Positions 34,219 to 53,085 of a stretch of 64,000 bases of DNA are shown in pieces (positions within the stretch are counted from its first letter, which is position 1; each line of letters begins with the position of its first letter). This DNA is from Deltaproteobacteria bacterium. Its GTDB lineage: Bacteria; BMS3Abin14. The notes under the pieces were generated by a model that searched no databases, was not told where the DNA came from, and saw only the letters and a list, made by a program, of their open reading frames with translations. The stretch lies in contig JAADHJ010000033.1 in the NCBI GenBank assembly GCA_013151915.1, positions 37,642 through 101,641 on the forward strand, given 5' to 3'. The translations under genes and the position numbers were made by a program.

Positions 34219-34727
34219 TCCGTTTTCTCCCTTCGCGCCAGGACCACAACCCCAAAAATGGCCACCAACAGTACCAGGGACGCCAGTTCAAATGGGAACA
34301 GAAATGTCGTGTACAGGCTTGTGCCCACAGCTTCGGTATTTCCACCGAAGATACGGCCGACAAGCTTGACAACCGGGCGGGAAAATGAACCCTGCACTGT
34401 TAGGATGACAAGTTCAAACATAAGTGCGATACCGGCGATCATCGCAAAGAACCGCTGGCGGTGAATAATCCTCAGTTCCCTGGTTTCGGAGAGGTCCAGC
34501 AGGGCAACAACAAAAAGGTATAGGACCATGATGGCGCCGGTATAGACAAGGATCTGAATGGCAGCCAGGAATTCAGCGTCCAGCAGTACAAAAAGACCCG
34601 CCACATGAAAGAAGCACGGAACGAGGAACACCACCGAATGGACCGGATTGTGACGGGAAATCGATAACACGGCCGTCACAATCGTGGCCACCGCAAAATA
34701 GTAAAACAACAATGAATACAAATCCAT
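34215..34727 (-). CDS. nuoJ: NADH-quinone oxidoreductase subunit J
   Basis: 170 aa membrane subunit. Its start overlaps the nuoK gene by 4 bp. Confidence 0.8.
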
Positions 34728-34737
34728 CGGCTACTCC

Positions 34738-35184
34738 CTACAGGTCCTCGTACCGGGGGTCATCCCCCTTGGTCAGCATCGACTCTTTGGTCACGTTCAG
34801 GTTGAAGGGGTCGGTGACGGACAACTCGTAATCGTTCCCCATCCAGACAGCATCTTCGGGACAGACCTCCTGGCAAAATCCGCAATAGATACAGAGTCCC
34901 AGATTGATCTGGTAGAAATCGATCAGCTTCTCGTGTTCCTCACCCTCGGAGGTCCTGATGATAATGGCACTGGAAGGGCAGATCTCCGCGCACAAACCAC
35001 AACCCACACACCTCTCCTTACCGTCGGGGTGCCGCTTGAGTACCTGTGCGCCTCTGTATCGAGGGGGTGGTTCCCAACGCACCTCCGGATATCTGAGGGT
35101 GACCGGCTTGGAGAAGAAATACCTGATAGTAAGAGTCAGCCCCTGAATCAGGTCGGTTTGAAAAATGTTGGTCAGCAGGCCCAC
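34738..35184 (-). CDS. nuoI: NADH-quinone oxidoreductase subunit I (2x[4Fe-4S] ferredoxin)
   Basis: CVGCGLCAEICPSSAI and CIYCGFCQEVCPEDAV. Confidence 0.9.
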   Translation of the reverse strand: MGLLTNIFQTDLIQGLTLTIRYFFSKPVTLRYPEVRWEPPPRYRGAQVLKRHPDGKERCVGCGLCAEICPSSAIIIRTSEGEEHEKLIDFYQINLGLCIYCGFCQEVCPEDAVWMGNDYELSVTDPFNLNVTKESMLTKGDDPRYEDL

Positions 35185-35195: not shown

Positions 35196-36215
35196 CTATA
35201 AAATTCCGGACATCCGAAGGATGCCTGATAAAAAGACATTAAAAATTGCGAGAGGAAGAAGAACCTTCCAACCAAGCCCCATGAGCTGATCATATCGGAG
35301 TCTGGGAAATGTCCACCGCACCCAGACCATGAAGAAGAGGAAAAATCCAACCTTCAACAGGAACCAGACAATGGGCATAACGTAGGCCGCAAAAGCAACG
35401 GGCAGCGCCGAATCGATGATGGGCCCCACAATGGGAAGCGGGAGCCAGCCCCCGAAGAACAGAACGACCAAAACGCAGGATATGGATATCATGGAAATAT
35501 ACTCGGCCATGAAGAACAGGGCGAACTTCATGGATGAGTATTCCACGTGGAACCCCGCCACCAGTTCCTGCTCGGCCTCGGGAAGGTCAAAGGGAAGACG
35601 GTTGGTTTCGGCAAAGGACGCGACCAGGAAAAGGATAAAACCCAGGAACTGGGGAATGACAAACCATAGCCCCCGCTGTGCCTCCACGATCTGAAACATG
35701 GACAGAGATCGTGAGTACATAAGCACCCCTATAATGGAAAGTCCCAGGGTCAGCTCATAGCTGATCATCTGCGCGGCGGACCGCATGCCCCCCAGGAGGG
35801 CGTACTTATTGTTGGATGACCACCCGGCCAGAACGATGCCGTAAACACCGAGAGACGAGATGGAAAGGATGTACACAACACCGATATTGAGGTCGGAGAT
35901 CTGGATATACGGCCCGATGGGGATGACGGCGAACGTCAGCAGCGCCGGAACAAATGCCATCAGCGGCGCCAGGATAAAGAGAACCTTGTCGGCCTTGGAA
36001 GGCATTATATCTTCTTTGAAAAAGAGTTTGACCGCATCGGCGATGGGCTGAAGAAGCCCAAAGGGACCTACATAAAGCGGCCCGTGGCGATTCTGGATAT
36101 GTCCCGACACCTTCCTTTCAATCCACACCATGACCGGCACACCCGTTAAGGCAACGATGAGGACAGCCACTATTTTCAACAGGATGATAAGCAAGAAAAG
36201 CCAGATATTATCCAT
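35196..36215 (-). CDS. nuoH: NADH-quinone oxidoreductase subunit H
   Basis: 339 aa, 8 TM. ...RLPFDLPEAEQELVAGFHVEYSSMKFALFFMAEY... Confidence 0.9.
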   Translation of the reverse strand: MDNIWLFLLIILLKIVAVLIVALTGVPVMVWIERKVSGHIQNRHGPLYVGPFGLLQPIADAVKLFFKEDIMPSKADKVLFILAPLMAFVPALLTFAVIPIGPYIQISDLNIGVVYILSISSLGVYGIVLAGWSSNNKYALLGGMRSAAQMISYELTLGLSIIGVLMYSRSLSMFQIVEAQRGLWFVIPQFLGFILFLVASFAETNRLPFDLPEAEQELVAGFHVEYSSMKFALFFMAEYISMISISCVLVVLFFGGWLPLPIVGPIIDSALPVAFAAYVMPIVWFLLKVGFFLFFMVWVRWTFPRLRYDQLMGLGWKVLLPLAIFNVFLSGILRMSGIL

Positions 36216-36249
36216 AACCTTCCCTTAGTATCCAGACCCTTAATTATTG

Positions 36250-36408
36250 ACAGGGTCGTAAAAAGTCCATTCGTGGCTTTTTGCTCCACGGAAAGCGAAA
36301 AGTGCCATTTTCTCTTTCCTCACAAATCAACAACTTGCCCTGCAAGTTTTTGATTTGCACATCCTTCAATGGGCGCGTTGATGACTTTTTCGAAGTCATC
36401 AATATTCC
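36250..36408 (-). repeat. Family A multi-hairpin repeat, long-form variant, reverse orientation
   Basis: Reverse complement: ttgatgacttcgaaaaagtcatcaa...caaatcaaaaacttgcagggcaagttgttgatttg...ggaaagagaaaatggcacttttcgctttcc...gcaaaaagccacgaatggactttttacgaccc. Confidence 0.8.
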
Positions 36409-37397
36409 ATGGCGCCGGACCGCTTGATTTCTCCGACCTTTTCAAGGAGGAAAAAGGCGTCCGTATTCTCAGGATTGAGCTTAATAGCATCGTTAAGCAG
36501 CTCCTCGGCTTTGTCCAGCATACCAAGATGAACGTAGCTGTTGCCCAGGTGATACAGGGCGCTGGAATCCATTGGATCGAGTTCCTTAACCCTGTTGAAA
36601 CTGGCCGCCGCATCCTCATGGGCCCCTTTCCTTGCCTGAGCCACACCCAGATGATAATAGGCAGCTGTAAATTGCGGGGACAGCGCCAGCGCCTGCTCGT
36701 ATGCATTTATGGCATCCTGCATGTTGCCCTTGTGGAAGTAGACCTGCCCCAGCCAGTAGTAGGCCATGACGTACCCGGGGGAGATTTCCACCACTTTCCT
36801 GAGGGCATCCTCGGCCTCCTGCAGCATTCCTTTCTGGAAATAAACGGTCCCCAACACGTACATGGACCTTGCGAAGGTGGGTGATATTTCGAGGGATCGC
36901 TGCAGTTCCTCCACCGCGTCGTCGAGCTTGGCATTCTTCTGGTGAAGGAGGGCCAGACGGTAGTGAATCTGGGCGGTGTCGGGGATCATCTTTCTCACCC
37001 GGTTGAAATGAAACTCCGAGTCGGGAAGAAGACCCATGGCGTAGCAGGTCATTCCAAGGCGATAGTGGACCGCGGGAGATGTGGGATTTGCGGCCTCAGC
37101 CTTCTTGAAACACTCCAGGGCGGCCGAGAGCATCCCCTTGTCGTAGTAGGCGACCCCCATGTAGTATCGGGTCATCTGAAAATCGGGTACCAGTTCGAGG
37201 GTTTCCTCCCATCGCTTCAGGGCCTCGTCAAAGTGCCCCTGGTGGTAAAGGGAGCTTCCCTCGCGGTAGAGCCGCTCGGCCTTCTCCTGGTTGGACAGGG
37301 CCTCCTGGTCATCGACCGTCGCTTCGAGCTTGTTGCCGCACTCTTTACAGTAGCGGCTGTCCTCCGGGATCAACAGATTGCATGCCGGGCAGATCAT
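36399..37397 (-). CDS. Zinc-ribbon + TPR-repeat protein
   Basis: N-terminal MICPACNLLIPEDSRYCKECGNKL. At least 8 TPR repeats (AxxxYxxGxxxxxxGxxxEAxxxxxxALELxP pattern). Confidence 0.75.
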   Translation of the reverse strand: MICPACNLLIPEDSRYCKECGNKLEATVDDQEALSNQEKAERLYREGSSLYHQGHFDEALKRWEETLELVPDFQMTRYYMGVAYYDKGMLSAALECFKKAEAANPTSPAVHYRLGMTCYAMGLLPDSEFHFNRVRKMIPDTAQIHYRLALLHQKNAKLDDAVEELQRSLEISPTFARSMYVLGTVYFQKGMLQEAEDALRKVVEISPGYVMAYYWLGQVYFHKGNMQDAINAYEQALALSPQFTAAYYHLGVAQARKGAHEDAAASFNRVKELDPMDSSALYHLGNSYVHLGMLDKAEELLNDAIKLNPENTDAFFLLEKVGEIKRSGAMEY

Positions 37398-37402
37398 CTT
37401 CG

Positions 37403-40180
37403 TTACCCTCCCGAGACTTCCGGCCCTGTTTCATTCGAGGCCTGCAGTCTCTTTTTCTGGATCTCCTGAACAGTCTTTTTTATCTTGGTAAGCTGTCCTC
37501 CAACATCTCTCTCCTCAACCACGATTCTTTCCGTCTTCTCCACCGCCACGCAGGTAATACCCTTCTCCTTGACTGCATTGTATTCGAAAAGGGCGTTAAC
37601 GTGCACATCCCGGTAGTGGGTGGGGACAAAGATAGTCCCGGGCATGCTCCGATCGGTGACCTTGGCCTGAACCTCCGTTATCCCCTTCATGCCCGTCAAC
37701 CTGATCCAGTCCCCGGTCTTGATCTCAAGGGTCTCCGCATCCTTGGGGTTGACCTCCGCCACGGCGGCAGGGGCGACCTCATTGAGTCCCTTGGCCATTG
37801 TTGTAGTCGTTCCCGAGTGGTAGAGCAGGGTCCCGGGAATCAGTATGTAGGGATAATTGGCTGTGGCCTTTTTGGGCTCCTGATAGGTGACGGGCCTGGC
37901 GCGGCCCAGCCCGCTGGGAAACCTGTCCATATGGAGAACTTCGGTTCCCGGATGGTCGGTCCGTGGGCACGGCCAGTGGAGACCGTTTTTCTCCAGTCGT
38001 TCGGGTTTGATGCCCGCGTAAAACGGGATAACATGGGCGATCTCTTCGGTTATATCCATGCCGTTGGTAAAATCCATGGGGTACCCGAAAAGGGTCGACA
38101 GCTCGGCGATTATCTTCCAGTCATCCCGTGTGTGGCCCTTGCTCTTAATGGCCTTCCTGACACGCTGGACGCGGCGGTCGGTGTTGGTGAAGGTTCCGTC
38201 CTTCTCCGGGCCGCATGATGTTGGGAGAACGACATCTGCAAGAAGCGCCGTGTCGGTGAGAAACATGTCCTGAACAACAAGTAGATCCAGCTTCTTAAGG
38301 GCTTTTTTCACCGTCTCCCGGTCCGGAAAAGAGGAGAGGGGGTTTTCCCCCATAATGTACAACCCTTTCAGCCGACCCTTCAGGGCCGCAAGGATCATTC
38401 CCTCGGCGGAAAGCCCATCCTTGGCGGACAGCGTCGTTTTCCATTGCCCCTCGAACCATTCCCTTATCCCCTCGTCGGCCACCGGCTGATACCCGGGGAA
38501 AAACTCGCACAGGGCGCCCATGTCCATGGAGCCCTGCACGTTGTTATACTCCGACATGGGAATAACACCGGCTCCGAGCCGTCCCACATTCCCGGTGATG
38601 AGGGCGAGGTTTACCGCCGCCGCTACCGTGTCCTCCCCCGTATAGGGGCTCGCCGCTCCAAGGGTGATAATAATGGTGGCATGCCCGGCTGCGGCCAGCA
38701 GGCGGGCCGCTTCGCGGACCTGCTCGGACGGAACACCCGTTACATCCTTCATCTTCTCAGGAGCATAATCCTGCAGGGAGGTCCGAAGTTCCTCCACACC
38801 CGTCACACGTTTCTCACAGAACCTCTTATCCTCCAGTCCTTCATCGAAGATAGTAAAGGCCATGGAGTTCAGCAGGGCGACGCTTGTCCCCGGGGAATGC
38901 CGCATCCAGCTGTCGGCAAACCGTGCAATCTTGACTTTCCGGCTGTTGGCGACGAGAAGCCCGGCATTCCCCGACCGAACCTGTTTGATGACCTTCAGCC
39001 CCGCAACATGATCATCCTCCGTGATGTTCGAATCCAGGGTGAAGATGAGGTCCGAGTGGGTAAGATCGTTCAGGGTATTGGTGGGAGCCTCAACACCGAA
39101 GGCCTTCCTGAGGGCCTCCATGCCGGGAAAATGGGCGAACCTGGCGATGGAGTCGACATTGTTGGTGCCGACAGCCGCCCGCATGAATTTCTGGAAAAGG
39201 TAGTTCTCCTCGTTGGTGCACCTGGCCGAGGCGATGCCTCCCAGAGCATCCGCTCCCTTTTCATCGCGGATCCTTGTCAGACCGTTTACGATGTATTCGT
39301 AGGCCTCATCCCAGGTGGCGGTAACCAGTTCGCCGTCCTTGCGCACCCTGGGCTCGGTTATTCTGTCGGGGTGGTGGACGTACTCGTAGCCGAACCGTCC
39401 CTTGCAGCAGAGGAAGCCGCTGTTGATGGATCCTTCATCATCAACGCCAAGAACATGGTAAATCCGGTCACCCTTAACCTCGAGATTAAGGGTGCATCCC
39501 ACACCACAGAAAGGGCATGTGGTACGGACCGGGGTCAATTCCCAGGAGGGGGCTGTGTACTTGTAGATCCTGCTGTAGAGGGCTCCCACCGGACAGGCCT
39601 GGATGCATTGGCCGCAGAATTCGCAGTCCAGCATTCTGGCAAAGGAAGGTTCAACGACCGTTGGGAAGCCGCGGTTGGTGAAATCCAGTTCCCCTTCCCC
39701 CTGCACTTCATCACAGATCCTTACGCAGCGGCCGCAGAGGATGCAACGGTTCTGGTTCATCTCTATCAGGGGAGACAGATAATCGATCCTCTTTTCCACC
39801 TTGATGTACCCGAACCGTCCGTAATCCTTCCCATGCTCAAAGGTCATATCCTGAAGGCGGCAGCGCCCCGACTGGGGGCAAATGGGGCACTCCAGCGGGT
39901 GGTAGGTCAGGAGAAGCTCCAGGATCGTTTCACGGGCCCTCCTGACCCGGGCAGTATCGGTGTGGATATCCATACCGTCGGCAACGGGTACCACGCAGGA
40001 CGCGAAAAGCCGGTCAGACCCTTCAACCTCCACAACGCACATGCGGCAGGATCCGAAGGGCATCAAATGCTTGTAGTCGCAGAAGGTGGGAATATCCACA
40101 TCCAGCATGCGCGCTGCCTCCAGGATGGTGGTCCCCCTTGGCACTTCTACCTTTTTGCCGTCAATGGTGACTTTGAACAT
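37403..40180 (-). CDS. NuoG/FdhA-like Fe-S molybdopterin-oxidoreductase-fold subunit, copy 2 (no Cys/Sec Mo ligand)
   Basis: 925 aa. N-terminal 2Fe-2S and 4Fe-4S cysteine motifs (CDYKHLMPFGSCRMC; HPLECPICPQSGRCRLQ; CILCGRCVRICDE; CEFCGQCIQACP; CPFCGVGCT). The region aligned to FdhF [16 protein letters not shown] reads VDSIARFAHFPGMEAL. Confidence 0.75.
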   Translation of the reverse strand: MFKVTIDGKKVEVPRGTTILEAARMLDVDIPTFCDYKHLMPFGSCRMCVVEVEGSDRLFASCVVPVADGMDIHTDTARVRRARETILELLLTYHPLECPICPQSGRCRLQDMTFEHGKDYGRFGYIKVEKRIDYLSPLIEMNQNRCILCGRCVRICDEVQGEGELDFTNRGFPTVVEPSFARMLDCEFCGQCIQACPVGALYSRIYKYTAPSWELTPVRTTCPFCGVGCTLNLEVKGDRIYHVLGVDDEGSINSGFLCCKGRFGYEYVHHPDRITEPRVRKDGELVTATWDEAYEYIVNGLTRIRDEKGADALGGIASARCTNEENYLFQKFMRAAVGTNNVDSIARFAHFPGMEALRKAFGVEAPTNTLNDLTHSDLIFTLDSNITEDDHVAGLKVIKQVRSGNAGLLVANSRKVKIARFADSWMRHSPGTSVALLNSMAFTIFDEGLEDKRFCEKRVTGVEELRTSLQDYAPEKMKDVTGVPSEQVREAARLLAAAGHATIIITLGAASPYTGEDTVAAAVNLALITGNVGRLGAGVIPMSEYNNVQGSMDMGALCEFFPGYQPVADEGIREWFEGQWKTTLSAKDGLSAEGMILAALKGRLKGLYIMGENPLSSFPDRETVKKALKKLDLLVVQDMFLTDTALLADVVLPTSCGPEKDGTFTNTDRRVQRVRKAIKSKGHTRDDWKIIAELSTLFGYPMDFTNGMDITEEIAHVIPFYAGIKPERLEKNGLHWPCPRTDHPGTEVLHMDRFPSGLGRARPVTYQEPKKATANYPYILIPGTLLYHSGTTTTMAKGLNEVAPAAVAEVNPKDAETLEIKTGDWIRLTGMKGITEVQAKVTDRSMPGTIFVPTHYRDVHVNALFEYNAVKEKGITCVAVEKTERIVVEERDVGGQLTKIKKTVQEIQKKRLQASNETGPEVSGG

Positions 40181-40209
40181 GAAATTTCCTCTGCCGACGA
40201 ATTCTTAAC

Positions 40210-40252
40210 GTTGATAGGGTCGTAAAAAATCCATTAATGGCTTTTTATTCCT
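40210..40252 (-). repeat. Family A fragment: solo hairpin 5
   Basis: gggtcgtaaaaaatccattaatggctttttattcc; overlaps the stop codon of the NuoF-GltD fusion gene. Confidence 0.5.
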
Positions 40253-43200
40253 CGTTATCACATCGGAGACAGCGACGTGCTTCCTTCATGGCCGTCTCCA
40301 CGGTAAAACCCAGATCGACCTCCGCAAAACCGAGAAGCCTTTTTTCCATCTCCATGGTCGGCATTTCAGGCCTTGCAAGATGCATGTCTTCTTCGGTGAG
40401 CTCAAGCGGCTTAATGGAATCAATGTTAGGCATGGTGATCCTGTATTGGGGGACCACATCCTCCCCGTTGAGATAGAGTTGCATGTGGGCTGCCGCCCTC
40501 TTTCCCGCAGCAATGGCGTCTATGACCATCCATGGGCCTGTTACAACATCCCCGCCGGCGAACACACCCTCAACGTTGGTCATCTGGGTAAAAGGATGGG
40601 CCTCAAGGGTGTTCCACTTGGTGATGTCCAATCCCTGGGACTTTTCTATGAAGGAGAGGTCCGGCTTTCCGCTGATGGCCACGATCAGGTTATCCAGTTC
40701 CATGTCGAACTCGGAACCCTCTATTGGAACCGGCCGGCGTCTGCCGGATGAATCCGGCTCACCGAGTTCCATCCTGATGCACTGCACTCCCGACATTTTT
40801 CCACCGGAGGTGAGGATTTTTACCGGTGCAACCAACTGAACCAACTCAGCGCCCTCTTTAAGCGCCTCCTCGATCTCCATATCGTCGGCGGGCATTTCCT
40901 TCTTGGTCCTGCGGTAAAGGATGGTCACCTCGGACCCCAATCGCCGCGCGATCCTGGAAGCGTCGATGGCCGTGTTTCCACCCCCGACAACCCCAACCTT
41001 CTTTCCGAGGAGTACCTTCTCACCGAGGTTGACCCTCCGCAGGAATGAAAGGCTCTCGTACACACCTTCAGCATTCTCACCCGGAATTCCCATTTTCAGA
41101 TCCACGTGGGCCCCGGTGGCGATGAACACCGCCTCATGATCCATGCGGATCCGGTCGAAACTGATGGTCTCGCCGATGCGGGTGTTGAGATAAAACTCGA
41201 CACCCATCCTCTCGATAGCGTGGATCTCATGTTTCAGGGTATCCCTGGGCAGACGGTATTCCGGAATTCCAAGGGAAAGCATTCCTCCGGCAATCGGCTG
41301 GGCCTCGAAGATGACCGGGGAGTAATCGTCCAGGGCAAGATAATGGGCCGCTGTAAGACCGGCCGGGCCCCCTCCGATGATCGCCACCTTTTTGCCTTTT
41401 CCGGAGACCTTCCGGACGTTGATCCTGTATCCGCCGGAAGACTCCTCCTTGGCCGCGAAGTCCGCAGCTACACGCTTCATGTTCCGGATACTGATGGGCC
41501 TGTCCAGCTCACCACGGCGGCACTTCCCCTCACAAGGATGGTGGCAGACCCGGCCGCAAACGGCTGGAAGCGGGTTGGTAAGGCGGATAAGTTCCAGTGA
41601 CTCGGTAAACTTCCCCTCCCCTATGAGCGTGAGATAGGCCGGCACGTCGGTCTCGATGGGGCAGACGTGCTGGCACGGGGAGGAGATGATCGGTTTGCAT
41701 ACCACCGCGGGGCATCTCTTGTTGATAATGTGAGCCTCGTATTCCTGGCGGAAATACCGGAGGGTAGAGAGGACGGGGTTGGGAGCCGTCTGCCCAAGGC
41801 CGCAGAGAGATGCGGCCTTGATCTCCTTGCCCAGATCCTCGAGGTTCTTCATGTCGTCCATGGTACCCTCTCCCGCCGTGATGCGTTCGAGGATTCCCAG
41901 CATGGTCTTGGTTCCCATGCGGCACGGTACGCACTTTCCACAGGACTCCGCCGTGGTAAACGAGAGGAAAAACCTGGCCACATCCACCATGCAGGTCCGC
42001 TCGTCCATTACGACTACTCCGCCGGAACCCATCATGGCGCCGGCCTGGATGAGAGAGTCGTAGTCGATGGGGGTATCGATGACCTCCGAGGGCAGGCATC
42101 CGCCTGACGGGCCGCCAAGCTGGGCGGCCTTGTACTTCTTGCCGCCCACAATCCCACCGCCGATGTCGTAGATTATCTCCTTGAGCTGGGTCCCTGCCGG
42201 AACCTCGATGAGCCCGGTGTTCTGGATCTTCCCTGTGAGGGCGAAAACCTTTGTGCCTTTAGTGCCTTTCGTTCCCACCGCGGCATAGCTATCGGCGCCA
42301 TTGAGGATGATGGGCGGCACGTTGGCAAAGGTCTCGACGTTGTTTATGTTCGATGGCTTGGCCCACAGACCCTTATGGGCCGGGAAAGGGGGTCTGGATC
42401 TGGGCATGCCCCGTCTGCCCTCGATAGAGGCCATCAGGGCGGTCTCCTCTCCGCAGACAAAGGCGCCGGCGCCCTCTTTTATCCTCAGGGTAAAGGAAAA
42501 ATCTGAGCCCAGAATTTTCTCACCCAGGTAGTTTTTTTCTTCGGCCTGGGCTATGGCGATCTTCAGACGTTCAATGGCCAGTGGATACTCCGCGCGGCAG
42601 TAGATATAGCCATACCGGGCTCCTATGGCGTAGGCGGCAATGATCATCCCCTCTATTACGGCATGAGGATCCCCCTCCAGGACGCTCCGGTCCATGAACG
42701 CGCCTGGGTCTCCCTCATCGGCGTTGCAGATAAGATATTTGGGGTCCCCCGCGGCGTTGGCGCAGAACTCCCATTTCAGCCCGGTGGGAAACCCTCCCCC
42801 GCCCCTTCCCCTGAGGCCGGATCTTTTCACGACCTCCCTGACGATTGTGGGGGACATTGTATTGATGGCCTTCTCCGCCGCCTTGTATCCATCGGTCTCG
42901 AGGTAGTCCTCCAGTTTCACGGGGTCAATGAAGCCGCAACGCCTGAGGACGACCCGCTTCTGTTTCTTGAAGACGGGCATCTCCTCATAGGTTGGTATCC
43001 CCTCATACGGCTTGCCCCCCTTCGGAACGATCTGGCCGATAGCATAATCGGTGAGAGGCTTTCCGTTTACCAGATGTTCCTTGAGGATTTCCGGGACCAT
43101 TGCGGGTTCGACCTTTGCATAGGTAACACGGGCCCGTCCGGGAAGGGATACGTCAAGCAGCACCTCTTGATAGCACATCCCGATACAGCCGGTTTTCAGA

Positions 43201-43325
43201 ATAGGCACCTGCAAGGAGATGTCCTTCAGTTGATGCTCCACCTCCTGAAGGACTCCCTTGGCCCCCGAAGCAAGGCCGCAGGTCCCCATGCCGATTACGA
43301 TCAATTTATCGCTGTCGTATCCCAT
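40245..43325 (-). CDS. Fusion protein: thioredoxin-like [2Fe-2S] domain + NuoF-like (FMN/NADH, 51 kDa) domain + GltD-like NAD(P)H:FAD oxidoreductase domain
   Basis: 1026 aa. NuoF block GLRGRGGGGFPTGLKWEF...ICNADEGDPGAF...GAGAFVCGEETAL...ESCGKCVPCR. Ferredoxin-like Cys clusters CPAVVCKPIISSPCQHVCP and AVCGRVCHHPCEGKC. GltD-like dinucleotide folds KKVAIIGGGPAGLTAAHYL and KKVGVVGGGNTAIDASR. Confidence 0.8.
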   Translation of the reverse strand: MGYDSDKLIVIGMGTCGLASGAKGVLQEVEHQLKDISLQVPILKTGCIGMCYQEVLLDVSLPGRARVTYAKVEPAMVPEILKEHLVNGKPLTDYAIGQIVPKGGKPYEGIPTYEEMPVFKKQKRVVLRRCGFIDPVKLEDYLETDGYKAAEKAINTMSPTIVREVVKRSGLRGRGGGGFPTGLKWEFCANAAGDPKYLICNADEGDPGAFMDRSVLEGDPHAVIEGMIIAAYAIGARYGYIYCRAEYPLAIERLKIAIAQAEEKNYLGEKILGSDFSFTLRIKEGAGAFVCGEETALMASIEGRRGMPRSRPPFPAHKGLWAKPSNINNVETFANVPPIILNGADSYAAVGTKGTKGTKVFALTGKIQNTGLIEVPAGTQLKEIIYDIGGGIVGGKKYKAAQLGGPSGGCLPSEVIDTPIDYDSLIQAGAMMGSGGVVVMDERTCMVDVARFFLSFTTAESCGKCVPCRMGTKTMLGILERITAGEGTMDDMKNLEDLGKEIKAASLCGLGQTAPNPVLSTLRYFRQEYEAHIINKRCPAVVCKPIISSPCQHVCPIETDVPAYLTLIGEGKFTESLELIRLTNPLPAVCGRVCHHPCEGKCRRGELDRPISIRNMKRVAADFAAKEESSGGYRINVRKVSGKGKKVAIIGGGPAGLTAAHYLALDDYSPVIFEAQPIAGGMLSLGIPEYRLPRDTLKHEIHAIERMGVEFYLNTRIGETISFDRIRMDHEAVFIATGAHVDLKMGIPGENAEGVYESLSFLRRVNLGEKVLLGKKVGVVGGGNTAIDASRIARRLGSEVTILYRRTKKEMPADDMEIEEALKEGAELVQLVAPVKILTSGGKMSGVQCIRMELGEPDSSGRRRPVPIEGSEFDMELDNLIVAISGKPDLSFIEKSQGLDITKWNTLEAHPFTQMTNVEGVFAGGDVVTGPWMVIDAIAAGKRAAAHMQLYLNGEDVVPQYRITMPNIDSIKPLELTEEDMHLARPEMPTMEMEKRLLGFAEVDLGFTVETAMKEARRCLRCDNEE

Positions 43326-43357
43326 CTGCTGCTATATCCTCCTGATGAAGAGTGGTT

Positions 43358-43924
43358 TCATTCTCCCCTCTTCATACTGTCCATTTCGCGGAGGTTCTCG
43401 ATAATCTTCTCCACCTTGACCGGATCGAGTTGCCCCGACGCATCGTCATCTATCATAATGACCGGGGCCAGACCGCAGGCGCCCAGACAGGCTACCTTCT
43501 CGAATGAAGCGAACCCGTCTTCAGTGGTTTGTCCGTGTGTAATACCCAGGATCGACTCCAGCTTTCCAATGATGCTCTTGCCGCCCCTGACGTGGCAGGC
43601 CGTACCTGAACAGGCCCTGATAATGTGACGTCCCCTGGGTGTGAGATGAAACTGGGTGTAAAAGGTCAGGACTCCGTAGACCTGGCTGCGGTAGATGCCC
43701 ATCCCGTCGGCAACCATGTCGGCGGCCTCCTCGGGAACGTAGCCATAGACCCTCTGAACGTCCTGAAGAACAGGGATCAACATCCCCTTGGTTTCATGGA
43801 GCGAATCGAGAATCTTCAGCACGGCAGCCAGGTCGATCTCCTCCTCGACCTCCTCGATTCCCGCGTCCTCCCTTACGTCCTCCAGTGTTACCTCGGTAAC
43901 ATCGGCGCTCACCGCCACCTCCAC
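43358..43924 (-). CDS. NuoE-like [2Fe-2S] 24-kDa-type subunit, copy 2 (acidic N-terminal extension)
   Basis: IIRACSGTACHVRGG...VACLGACGLAPVIMID (Cx4C...Cx3C). Confidence 0.8.
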   Translation of the reverse strand: MEVAVSADVTEVTLEDVREDAGIEEVEEEIDLAAVLKILDSLHETKGMLIPVLQDVQRVYGYVPEEAADMVADGMGIYRSQVYGVLTFYTQFHLTPRGRHIIRACSGTACHVRGGKSIIGKLESILGITHGQTTEDGFASFEKVACLGACGLAPVIMIDDDASGQLDPVKVEKIIENLREMDSMKRGE

Positions 43925-44376
43925 ATATAGTTCACCATATCGATGTACCGTTCATTCATTCCCCTCAGGGAATCCACCAGTTCATCTATGATAAGCTTCA
44001 GAATCTTTACGGCGTCCGCCGGATATTCTTCTACAAACCGGTCGAAGGACGCACGATCCAGCAGGTACAGAACGCTCTCCCCCTTGGCGCCGGCATCAGC
44101 CGAGTGCTCCCCTCCCGAAAGGAAGGTCATGATACCGACGAAACGCCCCGCGGGAACGACACCCAGGTTCTGAGCCTCGCCCTCCTTGGCTCTCTTCGTG
44201 ATTCTGACGGCTCCCTGACCAACCAGATAAAGATCGCCTCCCGTGGTTCCTTCGTTAAAGATCGGCTCCCTGTCCTGGTAGGATCGCTTCTGAAGGACGC
44301 CTGCCAGGTAATTGAGAGCATTGTCCGAAATACCCTGGAATGACTGCATCTGTTTAAGTTGGCCGATTTCAATCAT
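43909..44376 (-). CDS. Stand-alone cyclic-nucleotide-binding (CAP effector-type) domain protein
   Basis: 155 aa. PIFNEGTTGGDLYLVGQGAVRITKR...GRFVGIMTFLSGGEHSADAGAKGESVLYLLDRASFDRF. No HTH or output domain. Confidence 0.7.
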   Translation of the reverse strand: MIEIGQLKQMQSFQGISDNALNYLAGVLQKRSYQDREPIFNEGTTGGDLYLVGQGAVRITKRAKEGEAQNLGVVPAGRFVGIMTFLSGGEHSADAGAKGESVLYLLDRASFDRFVEEYPADAVKILKLIIDELVDSLRGMNERYIDMVNYMWRWR

Positions 44377-44389
44377 CTTTCATTCCTCC

Positions 44390-47065
44390 TCAACACTTTT
44401 CAACCCGGACCCGAACCACAGCGGTCTCCAACCCGGCTCCGTTTTCCCCCATAAGGCGGCTGACCGGAACATCGGAGAAGTGGCGCGGGAGATAGAGCAC
44501 CCCGGGCAAAAGATCGTTGGAATACTTTACACCCAGGGCAACCTCACCGCTGGGGGAAACTACCTTGACCCGGCTCCCATCCTCAATCTCCAGCCCGGCG
44601 CCCGTAACCCTGTTCATGGATAGAACCGCGCTGTTGACAAGTTGATTGAGGGATTCCGAATACCTGGTAAAGCTCCCGGAGTGGACCAACAGGTTACCGA
44701 TCAGCAGTGTCAAGGGGTAATCCGGGTTTTTCGAGAAACCTCCCCATCCCTTCACCGCGGCGAAGGAGCGCTTCCCCGCCGGGACCGAATCCGGTAGAAG
44801 GTGTCTGGTCCCCAGATAACCCTCACTGTAGACGTCATGGACATCCTGCCGGGTAAAGGGCCACTGAATGCCGTTGTCGGCGAGGATACGGTAACTGATC
44901 CCGGAGTAATAAGGTACGACCTCGGCAATCTCATCGAGAACCTCCGCGGAGTTGACGTACTTGAGCCCTTCAACACCCATGGACACTCCGACTTCCGAGA
45001 AGATCCTCCAATCGGGCATGGTTTTTCCAGCGCCATCCTGAGCTTTTTTGCTCCGCTGGACTCTCCTGTCCAGACTGGTGAGGGTACCGTTCTTTTCAGG
45101 AAGGCCACATGCCGGCAGAACGACATGGGCCCTGGAGGCCGTTTCCGTCAGGAACAGCTCCTGGACCACGAGGAAGTCCACCTTGGCCAAAGCCTCCTCG
45201 ACCATCTGCCCATCCGGGAACGTAATAACCGGGTTGACCCCCACGAGGTACAATGCCTGCAGCTTCCCGTCCCCGGCGGCGGCGAAAATCTCGTTGGCGT
45301 TCATCCCCGGCTTTTGCGGCAGAACGGCATTCCAGGCTTTTTCCAGGGTTTTTCTGTCCCTGGAAGATTCAACCGGAACCCACCCGGGGAGATGGTCCGG
45401 TGAGACACCCATATCCACAACCCCCTGAAAGTTGGTGTTGGAAAGAACGGGAAAAAGACCGCAACCTTCCTTTCCAAGGCGTCCGGTGAGCATCAGGAGA
45501 TCGACGAGAGCGTTTATCAGGTCGTCGCCGTTGGGTCCGAAGGCGGCTTCCTCACCAAATATTATGGACGATTTTCCAGCGGAGATAAATTCCCTTGCGG
45601 TCTGAACGATGTCGTGGACGGAAACGCCCGAGTTGGAGGCTATCTTCTCAAGATCAAGGCCGCTTACCGAATCCCTTAGGGCCTTTGTGCCCTTATAATC
45701 CGCCAGGGCCTCCACATCGACCAGTTCCTCTTCCAGCATGACCCGCATCATCCCTTTGATGAACGCCACCTCGTTGCCCACGTCAATGAGAATCGTCCGG
45801 GCGGCAAGCCGTGACAGGGCTGTGCTCCTGGGCATAAGCTCGGTTACCAGAGCGCCCTTTTTGATGGCCGATTTGACCTTGAGTCCCGCAATGGGGCTCT
45901 CCACGGTTATGTCGCATCCCACGAGGAGTAAAGAGTCAACATAATTAAGCTCGTCTATGGAATTCGGTGCGGCAAAAACCCCAAGCCGTTTCTCGAGGAT
46001 GGGCAGGACAACGCGGGTCCAGTTTCCAGACGGCGTGTCCACGTTGTTGCTTTCAAGAACGACCCTGAAAACCTTCTGGAACAGATAGAGCTCCTCATTG
46101 GTCAGGCGGTCCGATACGATCCCCCCTATTGCGCTGCCGCCACCCGACTTCTTCACTCCCCCAAAACCCTGGGCAACCGCGGCGAGAGCTTCGTCCCAGG
46201 AGACCTCGACCAGTTCACCGTCCTTCCGGATCAGGGGGGTTTTAAGCCGCTCGGGGTTGTTGATGACATCGTATCCGAAAAAACCCCTGGAGCACAGGCT
46301 GCCGTTGTTGATCCCCCTGTTTTCCGCATTGGTCACCTTGAGCACCCTGTTCTCCCTATGGTTGTAGAGCAGAGTGCACCCCATGCTGCAGAAGGGGCAG
46401 ATGGATTCCATCTTGTCCATCTCCCATGTACGGAACGTCTCCTTCATGGCCCTGGAGGTAATAGCCCCCGCCGGGCATGCCCAGATACAGTGTCCGCAGT
46501 ATTCGCAATCAAGGGACTTTTCCATGAACGGGCCCACGACCGTTTGAGCGCCGCGGTAGGACATTCCCAGGGCCGTCACCCCCTGGACCTCGTCACATAT
46601 CCTGACGCATCTTTTGCACTGTATGCATCTGTTAAGATTCCGGTCGATCAGGGGGCTGATGATATGGTCCCTCAGGACCCTCTTTTTCTCGCTGAACCTG
46701 GTCTCGCCGCTTCCGAACTTGAAGGCAAGATCCTGAAGGGTGCATTCCCCGGAGGCATCGCACACGGTACACTCGAGGGGATGGTTGATGAGGAGAAATT
46801 CCAGCATCATCCTCCTGGCCTTCTGGACGCGGGGCGTGTCGGTTCTTACCTCCATGCCTTCCAGGACCGCAAGGGTGCAGGCCGTCTGGAGCTTGCCCAT
46901 TCCCTCCACCTCCACCAGGCACATGCGGCAGGCACCAAGCTCGCTCAGCATGGGGTGATGGCAGAAAGTGGGAATATGGATGCCGAGTTTTCTCGCGGCG
47001 GTAAGGACATTAATATGCCCGTCCACCTTGATCTGCTTGCCATCTATTACCAGGCGGACCATCAT
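44390..47065 (-). CDS. nuoG: NADH-quinone oxidoreductase subunit G-like (75-kDa Fe-S / molybdopterin-fold subunit), copy 1, directly after nuoF
   Basis: 891 aa. HIPTFCHHPMLSELGACRMCLVEVEG; HPLECTVCDASGECTLQ; CIQCKRCVRICDE; CEYCGHCIWACP; CPFCSMGCT. Start overlaps the nuoF stop (ATGA). Confidence 0.8.
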   Translation of the reverse strand: MMVRLVIDGKQIKVDGHINVLTAARKLGIHIPTFCHHPMLSELGACRMCLVEVEGMGKLQTACTLAVLEGMEVRTDTPRVQKARRMMLEFLLINHPLECTVCDASGECTLQDLAFKFGSGETRFSEKKRVLRDHIISPLIDRNLNRCIQCKRCVRICDEVQGVTALGMSYRGAQTVVGPFMEKSLDCEYCGHCIWACPAGAITSRAMKETFRTWEMDKMESICPFCSMGCTLLYNHRENRVLKVTNAENRGINNGSLCSRGFFGYDVINNPERLKTPLIRKDGELVEVSWDEALAAVAQGFGGVKKSGGGSAIGGIVSDRLTNEELYLFQKVFRVVLESNNVDTPSGNWTRVVLPILEKRLGVFAAPNSIDELNYVDSLLLVGCDITVESPIAGLKVKSAIKKGALVTELMPRSTALSRLAARTILIDVGNEVAFIKGMMRVMLEEELVDVEALADYKGTKALRDSVSGLDLEKIASNSGVSVHDIVQTAREFISAGKSSIIFGEEAAFGPNGDDLINALVDLLMLTGRLGKEGCGLFPVLSNTNFQGVVDMGVSPDHLPGWVPVESSRDRKTLEKAWNAVLPQKPGMNANEIFAAAGDGKLQALYLVGVNPVITFPDGQMVEEALAKVDFLVVQELFLTETASRAHVVLPACGLPEKNGTLTSLDRRVQRSKKAQDGAGKTMPDWRIFSEVGVSMGVEGLKYVNSAEVLDEIAEVVPYYSGISYRILADNGIQWPFTRQDVHDVYSEGYLGTRHLLPDSVPAGKRSFAAVKGWGGFSKNPDYPLTLLIGNLLVHSGSFTRYSESLNQLVNSAVLSMNRVTGAGLEIEDGSRVKVVSPSGEVALGVKYSNDLLPGVLYLPRHFSDVPVSRLMGENGAGLETAVVRVRVEKC

Positions 47066-48339
47066 GATGATTCCTCCAACGTTCCGCCGGCCGGGTCCTC
47101 GCCTCTCACGTAATCCATGTACTCATTCCGGAACTTTTCCATGGTGCTCGTAACACAGCTGACCGATGCCTCTCCCAGCCCGCAGAAGGATGTAGTCCGA
47201 ATGCTCTCACATACATCCGAAAGCAGATCCAGGTCGGCCACGGTGCCGCGGCCTTCCAGGATTCTGTCGAATATCCTCCTGACCCAGTAAAGGCCTTCCC
47301 TGCAGGGGGTACACTTCCCGCAGGACTCGTGCTCGAAAAACCTGATGAGCACATGGGTGACCTTGACCATGTCGGCGGTGTCGTCAAGGACCATGACGGC
47401 ACCGGACCCGAGCATGCTGCCGGCCGAAGCCAGGGCATTATAGTCCAGCTTTACATCAAGCTGCGACACGTCAAGGCAGGCGGAGGAAGCGCCTCCCGGA
47501 AAAGCCGCCTTAAAACTGCGATTGTCCCGCATCCCCCCGGCGTGCTCAAAGATAAGTTCACGCAGGGTAACCCCCATGGGCAGTTCATAGACCCCGGGTT
47601 TTGCCACGTGGCCGCTGACGGAGAAAAGCTTTGTCCCGGGACACTCCGGCGTTCCGATCCCGGCATACCAACCACCGCCTCTCAGAAGTATTGGAGCTAT
47701 GGAAGCGAGCGTTTCAACGTTGTTTACAACGGTAGGCAGGCTGCTGTAGCCGACGTTGACCGGGAACGGGGGGCGAATTCTGGATTGCCCCCTCTTTCCC
47801 TCCAGGGATTCGATGAGGGCGGTCTCCTCTCCGCACACGTAGGCCCCGGCGCCCCGGTGTACGGTTACCGTGAAATTGAAGCCCGAGTTCAGGATGTTCT
47901 CTCCCAGAAATGATCTGTCCTCAGCCTCTTTAATGGCCCTTTCCAGGACCTTGGCCCCGAAGGGGTATTCACCGCGAATATAGATAAAACCATGCTCGGC
48001 CCCCACCGCATAGGCAGCCAACGCCATGCCCTCCAGGATGGCATGGGGGTCGTTTTCTATCAAAATCCTGTCCTTGAAGGTCCCGGGTTCACCCTCGTCC
48101 GCATTGCATATGATAAACTTCGGGCTACGCCGGTCCCGGGATGCAAAGTCCCACTTCATGCCCGCGGGAAACCCCGCCCCGCCCCTTCCTCTGAGCCGGG
48201 AAAGCTTGACCTCTTCAATGACTTCGTCGGGCGCCATTTCGTTCAAGGCCCTGGGGAGAGCAATGTATCCCTCGTTGACCAGGTAGGAATCTATATGCGC
48301 AGGATTGGGCCGGTCGATATTTCGGGTCAGGATTTTCAA
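47062..48339 (-). CDS. nuoF: NADH-quinone oxidoreductase subunit F (51 kDa; FMN, NADH, 4Fe-4S); start assigned to TTG (MKILTRNID) 4 nt after nuoE stop
   Basis: APDEVIEEVKLSRLRGRGGAGFPAGMKW...ICNADEGEPGTFKDR...GAGAYVCGEETALIESLEG...ESCGKCTPCREG. The ORF table's longer version (to 48420) would overlap nuoE by 76 nt. Confidence 0.85.
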   Translation of the reverse strand: MKILTRNIDRPNPAHIDSYLVNEGYIALPRALNEMAPDEVIEEVKLSRLRGRGGAGFPAGMKWDFASRDRRSPKFIICNADEGEPGTFKDRILIENDPHAILEGMALAAYAVGAEHGFIYIRGEYPFGAKVLERAIKEAEDRSFLGENILNSGFNFTVTVHRGAGAYVCGEETALIESLEGKRGQSRIRPPFPVNVGYSSLPTVVNNVETLASIAPILLRGGGWYAGIGTPECPGTKLFSVSGHVAKPGVYELPMGVTLRELIFEHAGGMRDNRSFKAAFPGGASSACLDVSQLDVKLDYNALASAGSMLGSGAVMVLDDTADMVKVTHVLIRFFEHESCGKCTPCREGLYWVRRIFDRILEGRGTVADLDLLSDVCESIRTTSFCGLGEASVSCVTSTMEKFRNEYMDYVRGEDPAGGTLEESS

Positions 48340-48343
48340 AGCG

Positions 48344-48835
48344 CTATGCCTTCTGCCTGTATGATTCAAGGATAGACCCCACACCGTCGGCCGAAACCTG
48401 CCGGTAAAGGTCCGCATCAACCATCAGGGCCGGAGCCTGGTCGCATGCCCCTATACACTCCACTTCCACCAGGGAGAATGCATTGTCGGGGGTGGTCTGT
48501 CCTACCTTTATGCCTAATTCCTTTTCAAGCGCCTCGAGGACCTCATCCGATCCATTGATAGAACAGCTCATGCTACGGCAGATCTGGACCAGATGCCTGC
48601 CCATCGGCTCCGTGAAGAACATGGTGTAGTAGGTGGCCACCTCAAAGGCCCTCACGTGGGGGACCTCAAGCAGGTCTGCGACAAAGACCAGATCCTCCTC
48701 AGCCAGAGATTTTTTCTTTCCCTGGATGAAGTGAAGAAGAGGCATGATGGCGGATGCCTTCATCGGGTAGCGGCCGGCAATACTTTCCATGGCCCTGACG
48801 TCGTCGGCTTTGAAGTATCCCGGGGGCGCCGTCAT
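48344..48835 (-). CDS. nuoE: NADH-quinone oxidoreductase subunit E (24 kDa, 2Fe-2S)
   Basis: HLVQICRSMSCSINGSDEVLEALEKELGIKVGQTTPDNAFSLVEVECIGACDQAPALMVD. Confidence 0.9.
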   Translation of the reverse strand: MTAPPGYFKADDVRAMESIAGRYPMKASAIMPLLHFIQGKKKSLAEEDLVFVADLLEVPHVRAFEVATYYTMFFTEPMGRHLVQICRSMSCSINGSDEVLEALEKELGIKVGQTTPDNAFSLVEVECIGACDQAPALMVDADLYRQVSADGVGSILESYRQKA

Positions 48836-50004
48836 CGGTCAATTTCCCCTAAAACGATATCAAGGCTTCCGATGATGGCCACCACGTCGGCCAGCATATG
48901 CCCCTTGGCCATGTCCACGAGGGACTGTAGGTTAACGAATGAAGGTGGACGGATTCTGAGGCGGTATGGTTTTGGGGTTCCGTCGCTGACGATATAAAAA
49001 CCGATCTCGCCCTTGGGCGATTCGATGGTGGAATATACTTCCCCCCTGGGCGGAGCCAACCCGTCCACCACCAGCTTGAAGTGATGGATCATGGCCTCCA
49101 TTGAGTCTTTCAGGCGATCCTTGTCGGGGAAGACGTACTTGGCGGTGCGCTCGATAAAAGGTCCTTCGGGAATGCCCTCGACCAATTGTCTTATCATCCG
49201 GGAGCTCTGCCGCATTTCGGCGAGCCGGACAAGATACCTTGCGTAGATATCTCCATCGGTCCTGACGGGAACGTCAAAGTCAATCTCGTCGTACGCCTCG
49301 TAAGGCTCGTCCCTCCGGATATCCCAATCTACACCTGACGCACGCATGGCGGGTCCGGAAAGGCCCAGGCTGACGGCGTCCTCCCGACTGATGACCCCGA
49401 TCTTTCTGGTTCTCTTCATCCAGATGCGGTTCTTGGTCAAAAGCCTCTCGTACTCATTGACGCGGACATCGAACTTGTCAAGGAAGGCGATGATCTTCGC
49501 CTCAATACCCACCGGGAGGTCACGGACAACACCTCCGGGACGGAAGTAGGTCATCATCATGCGGGTACCGGCGGTCTCCTCTATGATATCCAGGATGAAT
49601 TCCCTCTCCCGGAATCCGTAAAGAAGGACCGTCAGGGCGCCGATGTCGGCCGCGTGGGTGCCCAGCCACACCAGGTGACTCATCATTCGGGACAGTTCGG
49701 CAAAGATGGTCCTGATATACCGGGCCCGGCGCGGGGCATCTATCCCCAGGAGTTTTTCCACTGCCAGGATGTATGAGAGGTTGTTGGTTCCGGAGGAAAG
49801 ATAGTCCAGCCGGTCGGTGAGAGGAAGGACCTGAAGGTACTTCTTGTCTTCGGCGAGTTTCTCAACACCCCTATGCAGATACCCGATGTCGGGGACCGCA
49901 TTGACCACCACTTCGCCCTCGAGCTCCAGGATGATCCTGAGGACACCGTGGGTGGAAGGATGCTGAGGTCCCATGTTGATGGTCATTACCTCCTGCTTGG
50001 CCAT
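48832..50004 (-). CDS. nuoD: NADH-quinone oxidoreductase subunit D (49 kDa)
   Basis: MAKQEVMTINMGPQHPSTHGVLRIILELEGEVV...IGYLHRGVEKLAE. Confidence 0.9.
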   Translation of the reverse strand: MAKQEVMTINMGPQHPSTHGVLRIILELEGEVVVNAVPDIGYLHRGVEKLAEDKKYLQVLPLTDRLDYLSSGTNNLSYILAVEKLLGIDAPRRARYIRTIFAELSRMMSHLVWLGTHAADIGALTVLLYGFREREFILDIIEETAGTRMMMTYFRPGGVVRDLPVGIEAKIIAFLDKFDVRVNEYERLLTKNRIWMKRTRKIGVISREDAVSLGLSGPAMRASGVDWDIRRDEPYEAYDEIDFDVPVRTDGDIYARYLVRLAEMRQSSRMIRQLVEGIPEGPFIERTAKYVFPDKDRLKDSMEAMIHHFKLVVDGLAPPRGEVYSTIESPKGEIGFYIVSDGTPKPYRLRIRPPSFVNLQSLVDMAKGHMLADVVAIIGSLDIVLGEIDR

Positions 50005-53032: not shown

Positions 53033-53085
53033 TCGACCCTTGCCGGTGTCATAGGCTGAATTCCGGAAAACTGTCGGTGGTCGGG

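Follow-up and report, generated by a model that had tools for sequence, protein, structure and literature searches.

Complex I is usually described with one fixed NADH-oxidising head, and variation in its electron input is known mainly from headless enzymes, such as cyanobacterial NDH-1, Fpo, and the 11-subunit forms. The nuo operon described here raises the question of whether a single complex I core would accept two full heads, both encoded in the same gene cluster, and of what would decide between them. It lies in a stretch of 64,000 nucleotides (nt) from the metagenome-assembled genome (MAG) of a Geobacter-like member of an uncultured lineage, GCA_013151915.1 (contig JAADHJ010000033.1, positions 37,642 to 101,641); this whole stretch is what was analysed and is called the window below. 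The answer that we favor, to which we assign a probability of roughly 0.5, is that the operon would encode a single complex I core with two N-modules that can stand in for each other and that, in the clade to which the window belongs, the second of these has turned from ferredoxin to NAD(P)H.

A listing of open reading frames (ORFs) together with hidden Markov model (HMM) searches places 19 genes from nuoA to nuoN in one packed cluster, all on the minus strand. Their order is nuoA-B-C-D-E-F, a NuoG (891 amino acids [aa]), a cyclic nucleotide monophosphate (cNMP)-binding protein (155 aa), a second NuoE-like protein (E2; 188 aa), a NuoF-GltD fusion (F2; 1026 aa), a second NuoG-like protein (G2; 925 aa), a Zn-ribbon/tetratricopeptide repeat (TPR) protein (332 aa), and nuoH-N. 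The first-pass annotation had given this same order, and every gene that it listed was found in its place and on that strand. We refer to nuoE, nuoF, and nuoG (E1, F1, and G1) as module 1 and to E2, F2, and G2 as module 2; L-numbers are labels of loci in relatives. All 14 subunits, NuoA to NuoN, are present (NCBIfam matches for 14 of 14), but in place of the single NuoE/F/G N-module that defines complex I there are two E/F/G sets. With identities of 35% (E1/E2), 46% (F1/F2), and 39% (G1/G2), the two sets are old paralogues. A recent tandem duplication of nuoEFG is ruled out by these identities and by the grouping of each set with different orthologues.

Either set is found in close relatives as the sole E/F/G module of an otherwise orthologous operon (“sole” refers here and below to the operon, not to the whole genome). 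In L084 and L085, the nuoD-nuoH interval holds only the canonical E, F, and G, and nuoG ends 12 to 19 nt from nuoH. In L087, nuoD is followed by E (181 aa), F (594 aa), G (830 aa), and nuoH; these three proteins are 61, 59, and 43% identical to E2, F2, and G2 of the window and 72, 76, and 53% identical to module 2 of L083, versus 33 to 46% for module 1. Geobacter pickeringii has the order nuoABCD, E (53% identical to module 2), F (593 aa; 60 to 71%), G (827 aa), and nuoH-N, with a G that is equidistant from both modules. Both sets stand side by side in L083, where E/F/G is followed by a cNMP-binding protein (59% identity), E2 (58%), a 595-aa protein of the BfuB type to which the F2 core also belongs (58%), G2 (52%), and a TPR-like protein (36%). 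They do so too in L098, a closer relative, where a 608-aa ordinary BfuB (75% identity to the F2 core) is accompanied by a G2 that shares the degenerate motifs of the window; the L098 contig ends inside G2, so that this locus is seen only up to that gene. Furthermore, the F2 of L083 is 70 to 73% identical to NuoF-named proteins of Geomonas, Citrifermentans, Oryzomonas, and Geobacter.

Phylogenetic trees (neighbor joining from small samples, bootstrapped) place these proteins in the same way. One clade of the F tree, with 92.5% bootstrap support, unites the Geobacteraceae NuoF, the L083 F2, the L087 F, the F2 of the window clade, and a protein from L081, and it stands apart from the other NuoF-GltD fusions sampled. 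In the G tree, the G2 of the window clade, the L083 G2, and the L087 G form a clade with 100% support. The core subunits D, H, and I resolve three sister groups with Geobacter outside them: the window clade with L098, which is dual; L083 with L087, which is dual and type 2 only, respectively; and L084 with L085, which is type 1 only. Module 2 is thus orthologous to the sole E/F/G of the Geobacter pickeringii and L087 operons, and module 1 is orthologous to the sole E/F/G of L084 and L085, in which nuoG abuts nuoH. A dual ancestor followed by reciprocal losses would be the simplest history, and in that case each set would suffice for the core by itself. The newcomer block could be E1-F1-G1-cNMP or E2-F2-G2-TPR, and the clues pull apart: the Geobacter outgroup has type 2 only, and a contiguous nuoEFG-cNMP block exists in distant operons.

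Module 1 has the features of a canonical head. Its nuoE (48344-48835, minus strand; TIGR01958, 154 bits versus a cut-off of 142), nuoF (47062-48420, minus strand; TIGR01959, 568 versus 559), and nuoG (44390-47065, minus strand; TIGR01973, 495 versus 470) all exceed their curated cut-offs, and NuoF1 is without extra Fe-S domains. NuoE1 is 46 to 48% identical to the sole NuoE of L084 and L085 and to the L083 E1, whereas it is 35% identical to E2; likewise, NuoF1 is 71 to 73% identical to the sole NuoF of L084 and L085 and 46% identical to F2. The protein that the first-pass annotation called NuoG-like-1 is the canonical NuoG of this module, because it passes the TIGR01973 equivalog model, is named NuoG by NCBI in the record of the source MAG, and is orthologous to the sole NuoG of L084 and L085 (55 to 57% identity). 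Its molybdopterin site is degenerate, with no Cys-His and no Arg at the active-site positions of formate dehydrogenases (FDHs). The non-canonical stretch therefore spans only 36399-44376 (about 8 kb); the second set proposed earlier stands, but not the extent of about 10 kb (10.7 kb) that had been given to the extra genes. The longest nuoF ORF begins at a TTG and overlaps nuoE by 77 nt (48344-48420); since NuoF in the relatives is 425 to 431 aa long, the true start probably lies about 24 codons downstream.

Module 2 is built differently. E2 (43358-43924, minus strand; Pfam 2Fe-2S_thioredx, 1.6e-49) is a [2Fe-2S] subunit of the NuoE/BfuC type, and its best solved relatives are HydC, NfnC, and StnA, at 134 to 160 bits versus 76 to 99 for the NuoE of complex I. 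F2 (40245-43325, minus strand) consists of two parts. Residues 1-548 (41682-43325) form a BfuB core that matches HydB of A. mobile (7t2r_B, 755 bits), StnB of S. ovata (8oh5_B, 729 bits), and NfnB of T. sibiricus (9n5u_B, 728 bits); the matches run from residue 7 or 10 to residue 548 or 549 (10-548 for HydB) and then stop. This core contains an N-terminal thioredoxin-like [2Fe-2S] domain, an FMN/NADH site, an N3-type [4Fe-4S] cluster, and a CPAxxC motif. The N-terminal domain, which had earlier been taken for an additional NuoE (“NuoE'”), is the thioredoxin-like domain common to all BfuB/HydB proteins. The features of a Bfu core are all there: an N-terminal [2Fe-2S] domain, a B1 [4Fe-4S] cluster, an FMN/NADH site, and a BfuC partner. 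The cluster and FMN motifs are conserved in the alignment.

What F2 does not have is the Bfu-defining C-terminal 4Fe-4S ferredoxin-type domain (IPR017896), which is present in its L098, L083, and Geobacter counterparts. Directly after the CPAxxC motif, where other BfuB proteins carry that 2x[4Fe-4S] domain, residues 549-1026 (40245-41681, minus strand; Pfam Fer4_20 and Pyr_redox_2) form a GltD/NfnB-type domain with two [4Fe-4S] clusters, FAD, and an NAD(P)H site. It scores 416 bits to NfnA (9bov_A) residues 102-567 and 459 bits to PRK12814 (NCBIfam), under the cut-off of 916 for that model. The L083 BfuB has no GltD domain. In Bfu enzymes, the C-terminal domain of BfuB helps form the ferredoxin site (PMC12018979). 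Because the GltD domain sits where this ferredoxin-site domain was, that side of module 2 seems to have been redirected to NAD(P)H and away from ferredoxin. An exact database look-up of the NuoF-GltD protein of the window returned no record.

G2 (37403-40180, minus strand) aligns end to end with FdsA of R. capsulatus (6tg9_A, 615 bits), and residues 567-983 of StnC (8oh5_C) align with its residues 101-557. It scores 654 bits with TIGR01591 (cut-off, 666) and 446 with TIGR01973 (cut-off, 470), so that, in contrast to NuoG1, it falls below the NuoG equivalog cut-off. All of the N-terminal Fe-S motifs are retained, as is the Lys beside the first [4Fe-4S] cluster. However, the Mo ligand Cys386 of FdsA is Ala349 in G2 and Gly in its relatives (ARFAHF in the window and ARFGHF in relatives versus ARVCHS in FdsA and CARY(U)HS in L082), and the catalytic Arg587 is Ser (P(M/L)SEYNN versus NPLRGQ in FDHs). 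The neighboring His is kept in G2 and is lost too in the L083 and L087 orthologues; the L083 G2 is thus without Cys, His, and Arg. Because Cys/Sec and Arg are missing from every G2 of the clade, G2 appears to be an FdhA-derived NuoG-like protein and not a formate dehydrogenase.

Regardless of how the two sets came together, the arrangement is not due to chance. Among 80 loci with F2 relatives that were returned by a scan of one genome per species, 9 share the nuo-embedded order, with F2 about 80% identical, and the same order is found in 12 metagenome contigs. Relatives at 60 to 85% amino acid identity share it with both sets intact, and the dual state extends over more than 20 loci in three dual lineages, with NuoG identities from 56% to 88%. 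Conservation in the relatives is about 80% for F2 and 82% for the TPR protein, versus about 66% for G1. Gaps between genes in the relatives are short: 13 nt for G1-cNMP, a 16-nt overlap for cNMP-E2, 30 nt for E2-F2, about 47 nt for F2-G2, 1 to 14 nt for G2-TPR, and, in most, 12 to 25 nt for TPR-nuoH. The first-pass annotation had named an internal terminator or promoter as evidence that would make the second set a separate transcription unit. A scan for both found nothing above background in the gaps, and promoter-like sites are not enriched in the window (8 versus 9.3 +/- 2.8 in shuffled sequences); since the gaps of the relatives leave no space for a promoter or terminator, a separate unit is not supported. 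In one related locus, L063 (CP070682.1, closed MAG bin676), the operon stops within F2 at about residue 415-484; from about position 11245, unrelated genes on the opposite strand take its place, with products that include a phosphonate-binding protein, a histidine kinase, and a DUF362 protein. The break would be either a rearrangement or an assembly error.

Two further genes of the non-canonical stretch encode possible accessory proteins. The cNMP-binding protein (43909-44376, minus strand; Pfam cNMP_binding, 1.4e-17) is a stand-alone domain without a DNA-binding domain, and it has a conserved C-terminal MVNYMWRWR motif. Seven distant operons with a single module (L100, L102 to L106, and L108) have homologues at 28 to 35% identity in the nuoG-nuoH interval, at about 10001-10465 or the corresponding place, and two of these operons have a duplicated nuoM. 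Others adjoin a gene for a selenocysteine (Sec) FdhA in the Wood-Ljungdahl clusters L082 (15984-16442; 36% identical to the window protein, with a shared C-terminal MVNYMW motif) and L099 (10001-10420). In dual nuo, single-module nuo, and Wood-Ljungdahl settings alike, the gene directly follows one for a NuoG/FdhA-like protein, and it therefore travels with the G-like gene. That it belongs to an inserted module is ruled out by its place after nuoG in distant single-module operons and after Sec-FdhA in Wood-Ljungdahl clusters. It may act on NuoG/FdhA-type subunits as an accessory or regulatory protein that has so far gone unrecognised, and it is a candidate ligand-dependent regulator. The TPR protein (36399-37397, minus strand; Pfam TPR_1 and TPR_2, about 1e-57) has the N-terminal motif CPAC...CKEC, is among the best-conserved products of the cluster (72 to 86% identity), and showed no obvious signal peptide when its sequence was inspected. 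Among the sampled operons, only dual ones have it (those of the window clade and, at 36% identity, L083), and it is a candidate factor for the assembly or selection of heads.

With two heads, a single core of NuoA-D and NuoH-N would be supplied with electrons by alternative input modules from one operon. Module 1 would be the ordinary NADH head, and module 2 would be a Bfu-type head of the kind that serves as the sole N-module in Geobacter and related nuo operons. The second head is predicted to dock through G2 on the same NuoB/C/D/I platform, with electrons from NAD(P)H entering at FAD and electrons from NADH entering at FMN, running through the Fe-S clusters of F2 and G2 to NuoI and NuoB, and ending at quinone. 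If NADPH is indeed the donor at the FAD site, it would thereby feed the proton-pumping chain directly. A fuller version of this scheme is more tentative, and we rate it somewhat short of an even chance: the enzyme would pump protons with either head, the Bfu-derived GltD head would make it an NADPH:quinone oxidoreductase, the TPR and cNMP-binding proteins would choose between the heads, and the dual operons would be living intermediates of head replacement.

The closest published counterpart is Nuo-Bfu, a Bfu-type complex I that has been predicted for Geobacter, Deferribacteres, Nitrospirae, and Planctomycetes; in the same work, the case is made that Bfu genes nested within a nuo or mbh cluster specify a single enzyme (Schut et al. 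2022, PMC9304861). As in the window, the middle of nuoA-N, from nuoD to nuoH, holds a Bfu-type E/F/G, and the Geobacter pickeringii/L087 set is orthologous to E2, the F2 core, and G2. In Nuo-Bfu, however, the Bfu set replaces NuoEFG in a 14-gene operon, whereas in the window it coexists with a canonical NuoEFG among 19 genes that include those for the cNMP-binding and TPR proteins, and F2 carries the GltD-type NAD(P)H domain instead of the ferredoxin-type C terminus. Both heads in one operon is a state that Schut et al. did not describe, and in the literature searched we found no published account of a nuo operon with two EFG sets, an embedded NuoF-GltD, or a cNMP gene. Modularity in reverse is seen in S. 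fumaroxidans, in which one nuoEFG and two complex I cores lie at separate loci (Spero et al. 2015, PMC4453560); this illustrates the idea of more than one pairing of core and N-module in one organism, but as a mirror image, with one head for two cores rather than two heads for one core in a single operon.

Other known systems resemble module 2 in their parts. The bifurcating transhydrogenases NfnABC and StnABC (9bov, 9n5u, and 8oh5; PMC11829005 and PMC12018979) are its best solved relatives, with matching cofactor domains and, as in G2, a non-catalytic molybdopterin-like domain in BfuA. In these enzymes, however, GltD is inside BfuA, whereas in the window it is at the C terminus of a BfuB-type F2 and is absent from G2; the window set also has no C-terminal ferredoxin-site domain on BfuB, lies within a nuo operon, and has a core of the Nuo type by phylogeny. 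The BfuB and BfuC subunits of NiFe-HydABCSL are likewise among the closest solved relatives of the F2 core and E2. FdsGBA (R. capsulatus, 6tg9; C. necator, 6vw7) shares the layout of NuoE-like, NuoF-like, and FdhA subunits and the full-length match of FdsA to G2, but it differs in the catalytic Cys and Arg, which G2 does not have, and in F2, which is of the BfuB type with an N-terminal [2Fe-2S] domain and GltD. Geobacter SfrAB, reportedly described by Coppi and coworkers in 2007, is said to be NADPH linked and to consist of SfrB, with a [2Fe-2S] and a GltD-like part, and the FdhA-like SfrA. A GltD-type NADPH domain and an FdhA-like Fe-S protein are thus partners there as well, in an organism of the Geobacter type; however, SfrAB has two subunits, no NuoE and no NuoF/FMN part, and lies outside a nuo operon, whereas the window has GltD on a NuoF/BfuB core with a NuoE-like partner. 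An earlier comparison of the locus with Sfr, Nfn, and Stn therefore holds at the level of parts, but the placement of GltD on F, where it replaces the ferredoxin-side domain, is the defining architecture of none of them. Public records do not name the locus as Sfr or Nfn and use only the generic names NuoF, FAD-dependent oxidoreductase, and molybdopterin-dependent oxidoreductase; the other ground for refutation named by the first-pass annotation, a known Sfr/Nfn locus that merely adjoins nuo, thus does not hold either.

The first-pass annotation had offered two readings, an alternative input for complex I and a co-regulated soluble enzyme, of which the former is now favored by the orthology of module 2 to the sole Geobacter and L087 sets. 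The latter stays a serious rival, possible if on balance doubtful, because NuoF-GltD occurs in soluble contexts elsewhere. Module 2 would then be a co-transcribed, domain-permuted relative of NfnABC/StnABC that interconverts NADH and NADPH, perhaps with ferredoxin, and balances the pyridine-nucleotide pools. All parts of such an enzyme are present: BfuC, a BfuB core, a GltD-like FAD domain, a NuoG-like Fe-S chain, and a degenerate molybdopterin-like domain. Unrelated reading frames inside nuo or nqo operons are known in Paracoccus and Rhodobacter. Furthermore, the pair of NuoE and NuoF-GltD occurs outside nuo operons in many phyla. The best 120 database matches to F2 are all 978 to 1075 aa long, with query coverage of 98 to 100% except for one partial match, and NuoF-GltD is found in Dehalococcoidia, Firmicutes, Desulfomonile, Acidobacteria, and other groups, where its gene neighbors one for a NuoE-like protein and any of a range of G-like partners, true Cys- or Sec-FDHs among them. 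In L082, genes for NuoE, NuoF-GltD, a Sec-FdhA (motifs CARY-TGA-HSS and NPLRGQ), and a cNMP-binding protein lie between those for carbon monoxide dehydrogenase/acetyl-CoA synthase (CODH/ACS) and formyl-tetrahydrofolate synthetase (FTHFS). In L081 (GCA_029210545.1, 9489-13087), a pair of E2 and NuoF-GltD, 72% identical to that of the window, is flanked by aminoacyl-tRNA synthetase genes; neither a G-like partner nor any nuo gene lies within 10 kb. Against a soluble enzyme stands the fact that module 2 (E2, G2, and the BfuB core of F2) has its orthologues in the sole N-module of Geobacter and L087, not among the soluble enzymes sampled. Module 2 of L083 and L098, with an ordinary BfuB, no GltD, and a G2 without a catalytic site, has no site of its own for a third substrate, which fits poorly with a Bfu enzyme that acts by itself. 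The placement of module 2 in the nuoG-nuoH interval and the gaps, of a size fit for translational coupling, are kept across lineages with NuoG only 56% identical. The C-terminal BfuB domain that helps bind ferredoxin is gone from F2 (PMC12018979).

Two other explanations fare worse. We regard it as improbable that the dual state is a transient, largely redundant stage of N-module replacement in which one set is being lost without having had a distinct function: the relatives with module 1 only (L084 and L085) or module 2 only (L087 and Geobacter) show that losses occur, but both sets are intact in more than 20 dual loci of three lineages, module 2 genes are conserved at least as well as NuoG1, and the gain of GltD in the window clade points to selection for a distinct role. 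Still less credible is that module 2 is an FdsGBA-type NAD(P)+-dependent formate dehydrogenase or CO2 reductase placed in a nuo operon. Such an enzyme would fit the scores of G2 with FdsA and TIGR01591, the His that it keeps, the Lys kept near its first [4Fe-4S] cluster, and the homologous module of L082 (cNMP, NuoE, NuoF-GltD, and FdhA), whose FdhA is a selenoprotein in a CODH/ACS-FTHFS cluster; however, the Mo/W ligand and the catalytic Arg are replaced in the whole clade, and the orthologues in L083 and L087 have dispensed with the His as well. To our knowledge, all characterised metal-dependent FDHs need both the Cys/Sec and the Arg. Several points nevertheless weigh against two interchangeable heads. 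The Geobacter Nuo-Bfu is itself a prediction, and to co-transcribe competing heads in a fixed ratio would be strange without some means of selecting one of them. This NuoF-GltD architecture also stands beside Sec-FdhA in L082 and L099 and beside true FDHs or other G-like genes in Firmicutes and Dehalococcoidia, and in L081 the E2 and F2-GltD pair is alone, with neither G2 nor nuo nearby; from the L082 and L081 contexts, the architecture can, by analogy, work in soluble enzymes. Finally, the G2 of the window clade may still bind a pterin and do something else, because, of the catalytic-domain positions that three true FDHs share without variation, it keeps 66%, versus 52% for NuoG1.

The remaining genes of the operon encode an ordinary complex I core. 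On the minus strand, nuoA (51073-51447; NCBIfam NuoA models, E value of about 1e-31) is followed by nuoB (50522-51103; TIGR01957, 236 bits versus a cut-off of 143), nuoC (50016-50525; TIGR01961, 138 versus 122), and nuoD (48832-50004; TIGR01962, 583 versus 459). Beyond module 2 are nuoH (35196-36215; NF004741, 375 versus 305), nuoI (34738-35184; TIGR01971, 146 versus 113), nuoJ (34215-34727; NCBIfam NuoJ models, E value of 5e-42), nuoK (33916-34218; NF004321, 142 versus 91), nuoL (31973-33904; NF005141, 785 versus 556), nuoM (30186-31829; TIGR01972, 628 versus 264), and nuoN (28698-30179; TIGR01770, 460 versus 333). NuoB to NuoI, NuoK, and NuoL reach curated NCBIfam cut-offs at the equivalog level, except that the models for NuoB, NuoC, NuoE, and NuoI are subfamily models. 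NuoM and NuoN reach subfamily cut-offs, and the matches of NuoA and NuoJ fall below theirs.

The sole long gap in the cluster, the 183 nt between the TPR gene and nuoH, holds a copy (36243-36390, minus strand) of a dispersed intergenic repeat and is free of it in most relatives. The repeat is about 140 to 160 nt long, folds into multiple hairpins (z-score, -3.05), and resembles repetitive extragenic palindromes (REP) or miniature inverted-repeat transposable elements (MITE). This is one of five full copies in the window (the others are at 353-500, 7748-7884, 53085-53221, and 59760-59896), and there are partial copies at 13214-13252, 28430-28461, and, in the 64-nt F2-G2 gap, 40207-40254 (repeat families D6, I13, and I14). 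An Rfam scan of the window, this repeat included, gave no matches. A second, unrelated intergenic repeat of about 83 nt is found at 22290-22372 and at 28481-28563, just downstream of nuoN, with an inverted copy at 11320-11379.

Upstream of nuoA lies the divergent hemL (51734-53032, plus strand). In relatives (L083 to L086), genes for ATP synthase a/c/I and multihaem cytochromes are found beyond hemL, a neighborhood like that of Geobacter pickeringii, which has the same atp-hemL-nuoA order with its single E/F/G set. This hemL/ATP synthase neighborhood is the best clue to the affinity of the lineage. NCBI labels the source MAG “Deltaproteobacteria bacterium” and its relatives “bacterium” or “Pseudomonadota bacterium”; the nuo layout in the paper on candidate phylum MBNT15 is unlike that of the window.

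With two full heads in one operon, and with each of them standing alone in the operons of close relatives, the idea that complex I evolved by modules would become directly testable. The relatives also form a natural comparison series for the Nuo-Bfu prediction, from operons with the canonical set only, through those with both sets and either a ferredoxin-type or a GltD-type F2, to those with the Bfu-type set only. Should module 2 prove to be soluble, it would still combine the domains known from Nfn/Stn transhydrogenases in a new way. If it is a head of complex I, its GltD domain would provide a direct entry for NADPH into the proton-pumping respiratory chain, and we know of no canonical complex I that takes NADPH directly. 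In Geobacter-like acetate oxidisers, the tricarboxylic acid cycle yields NADPH and reduced ferredoxin, and an entry point for NADPH would suit such organisms.

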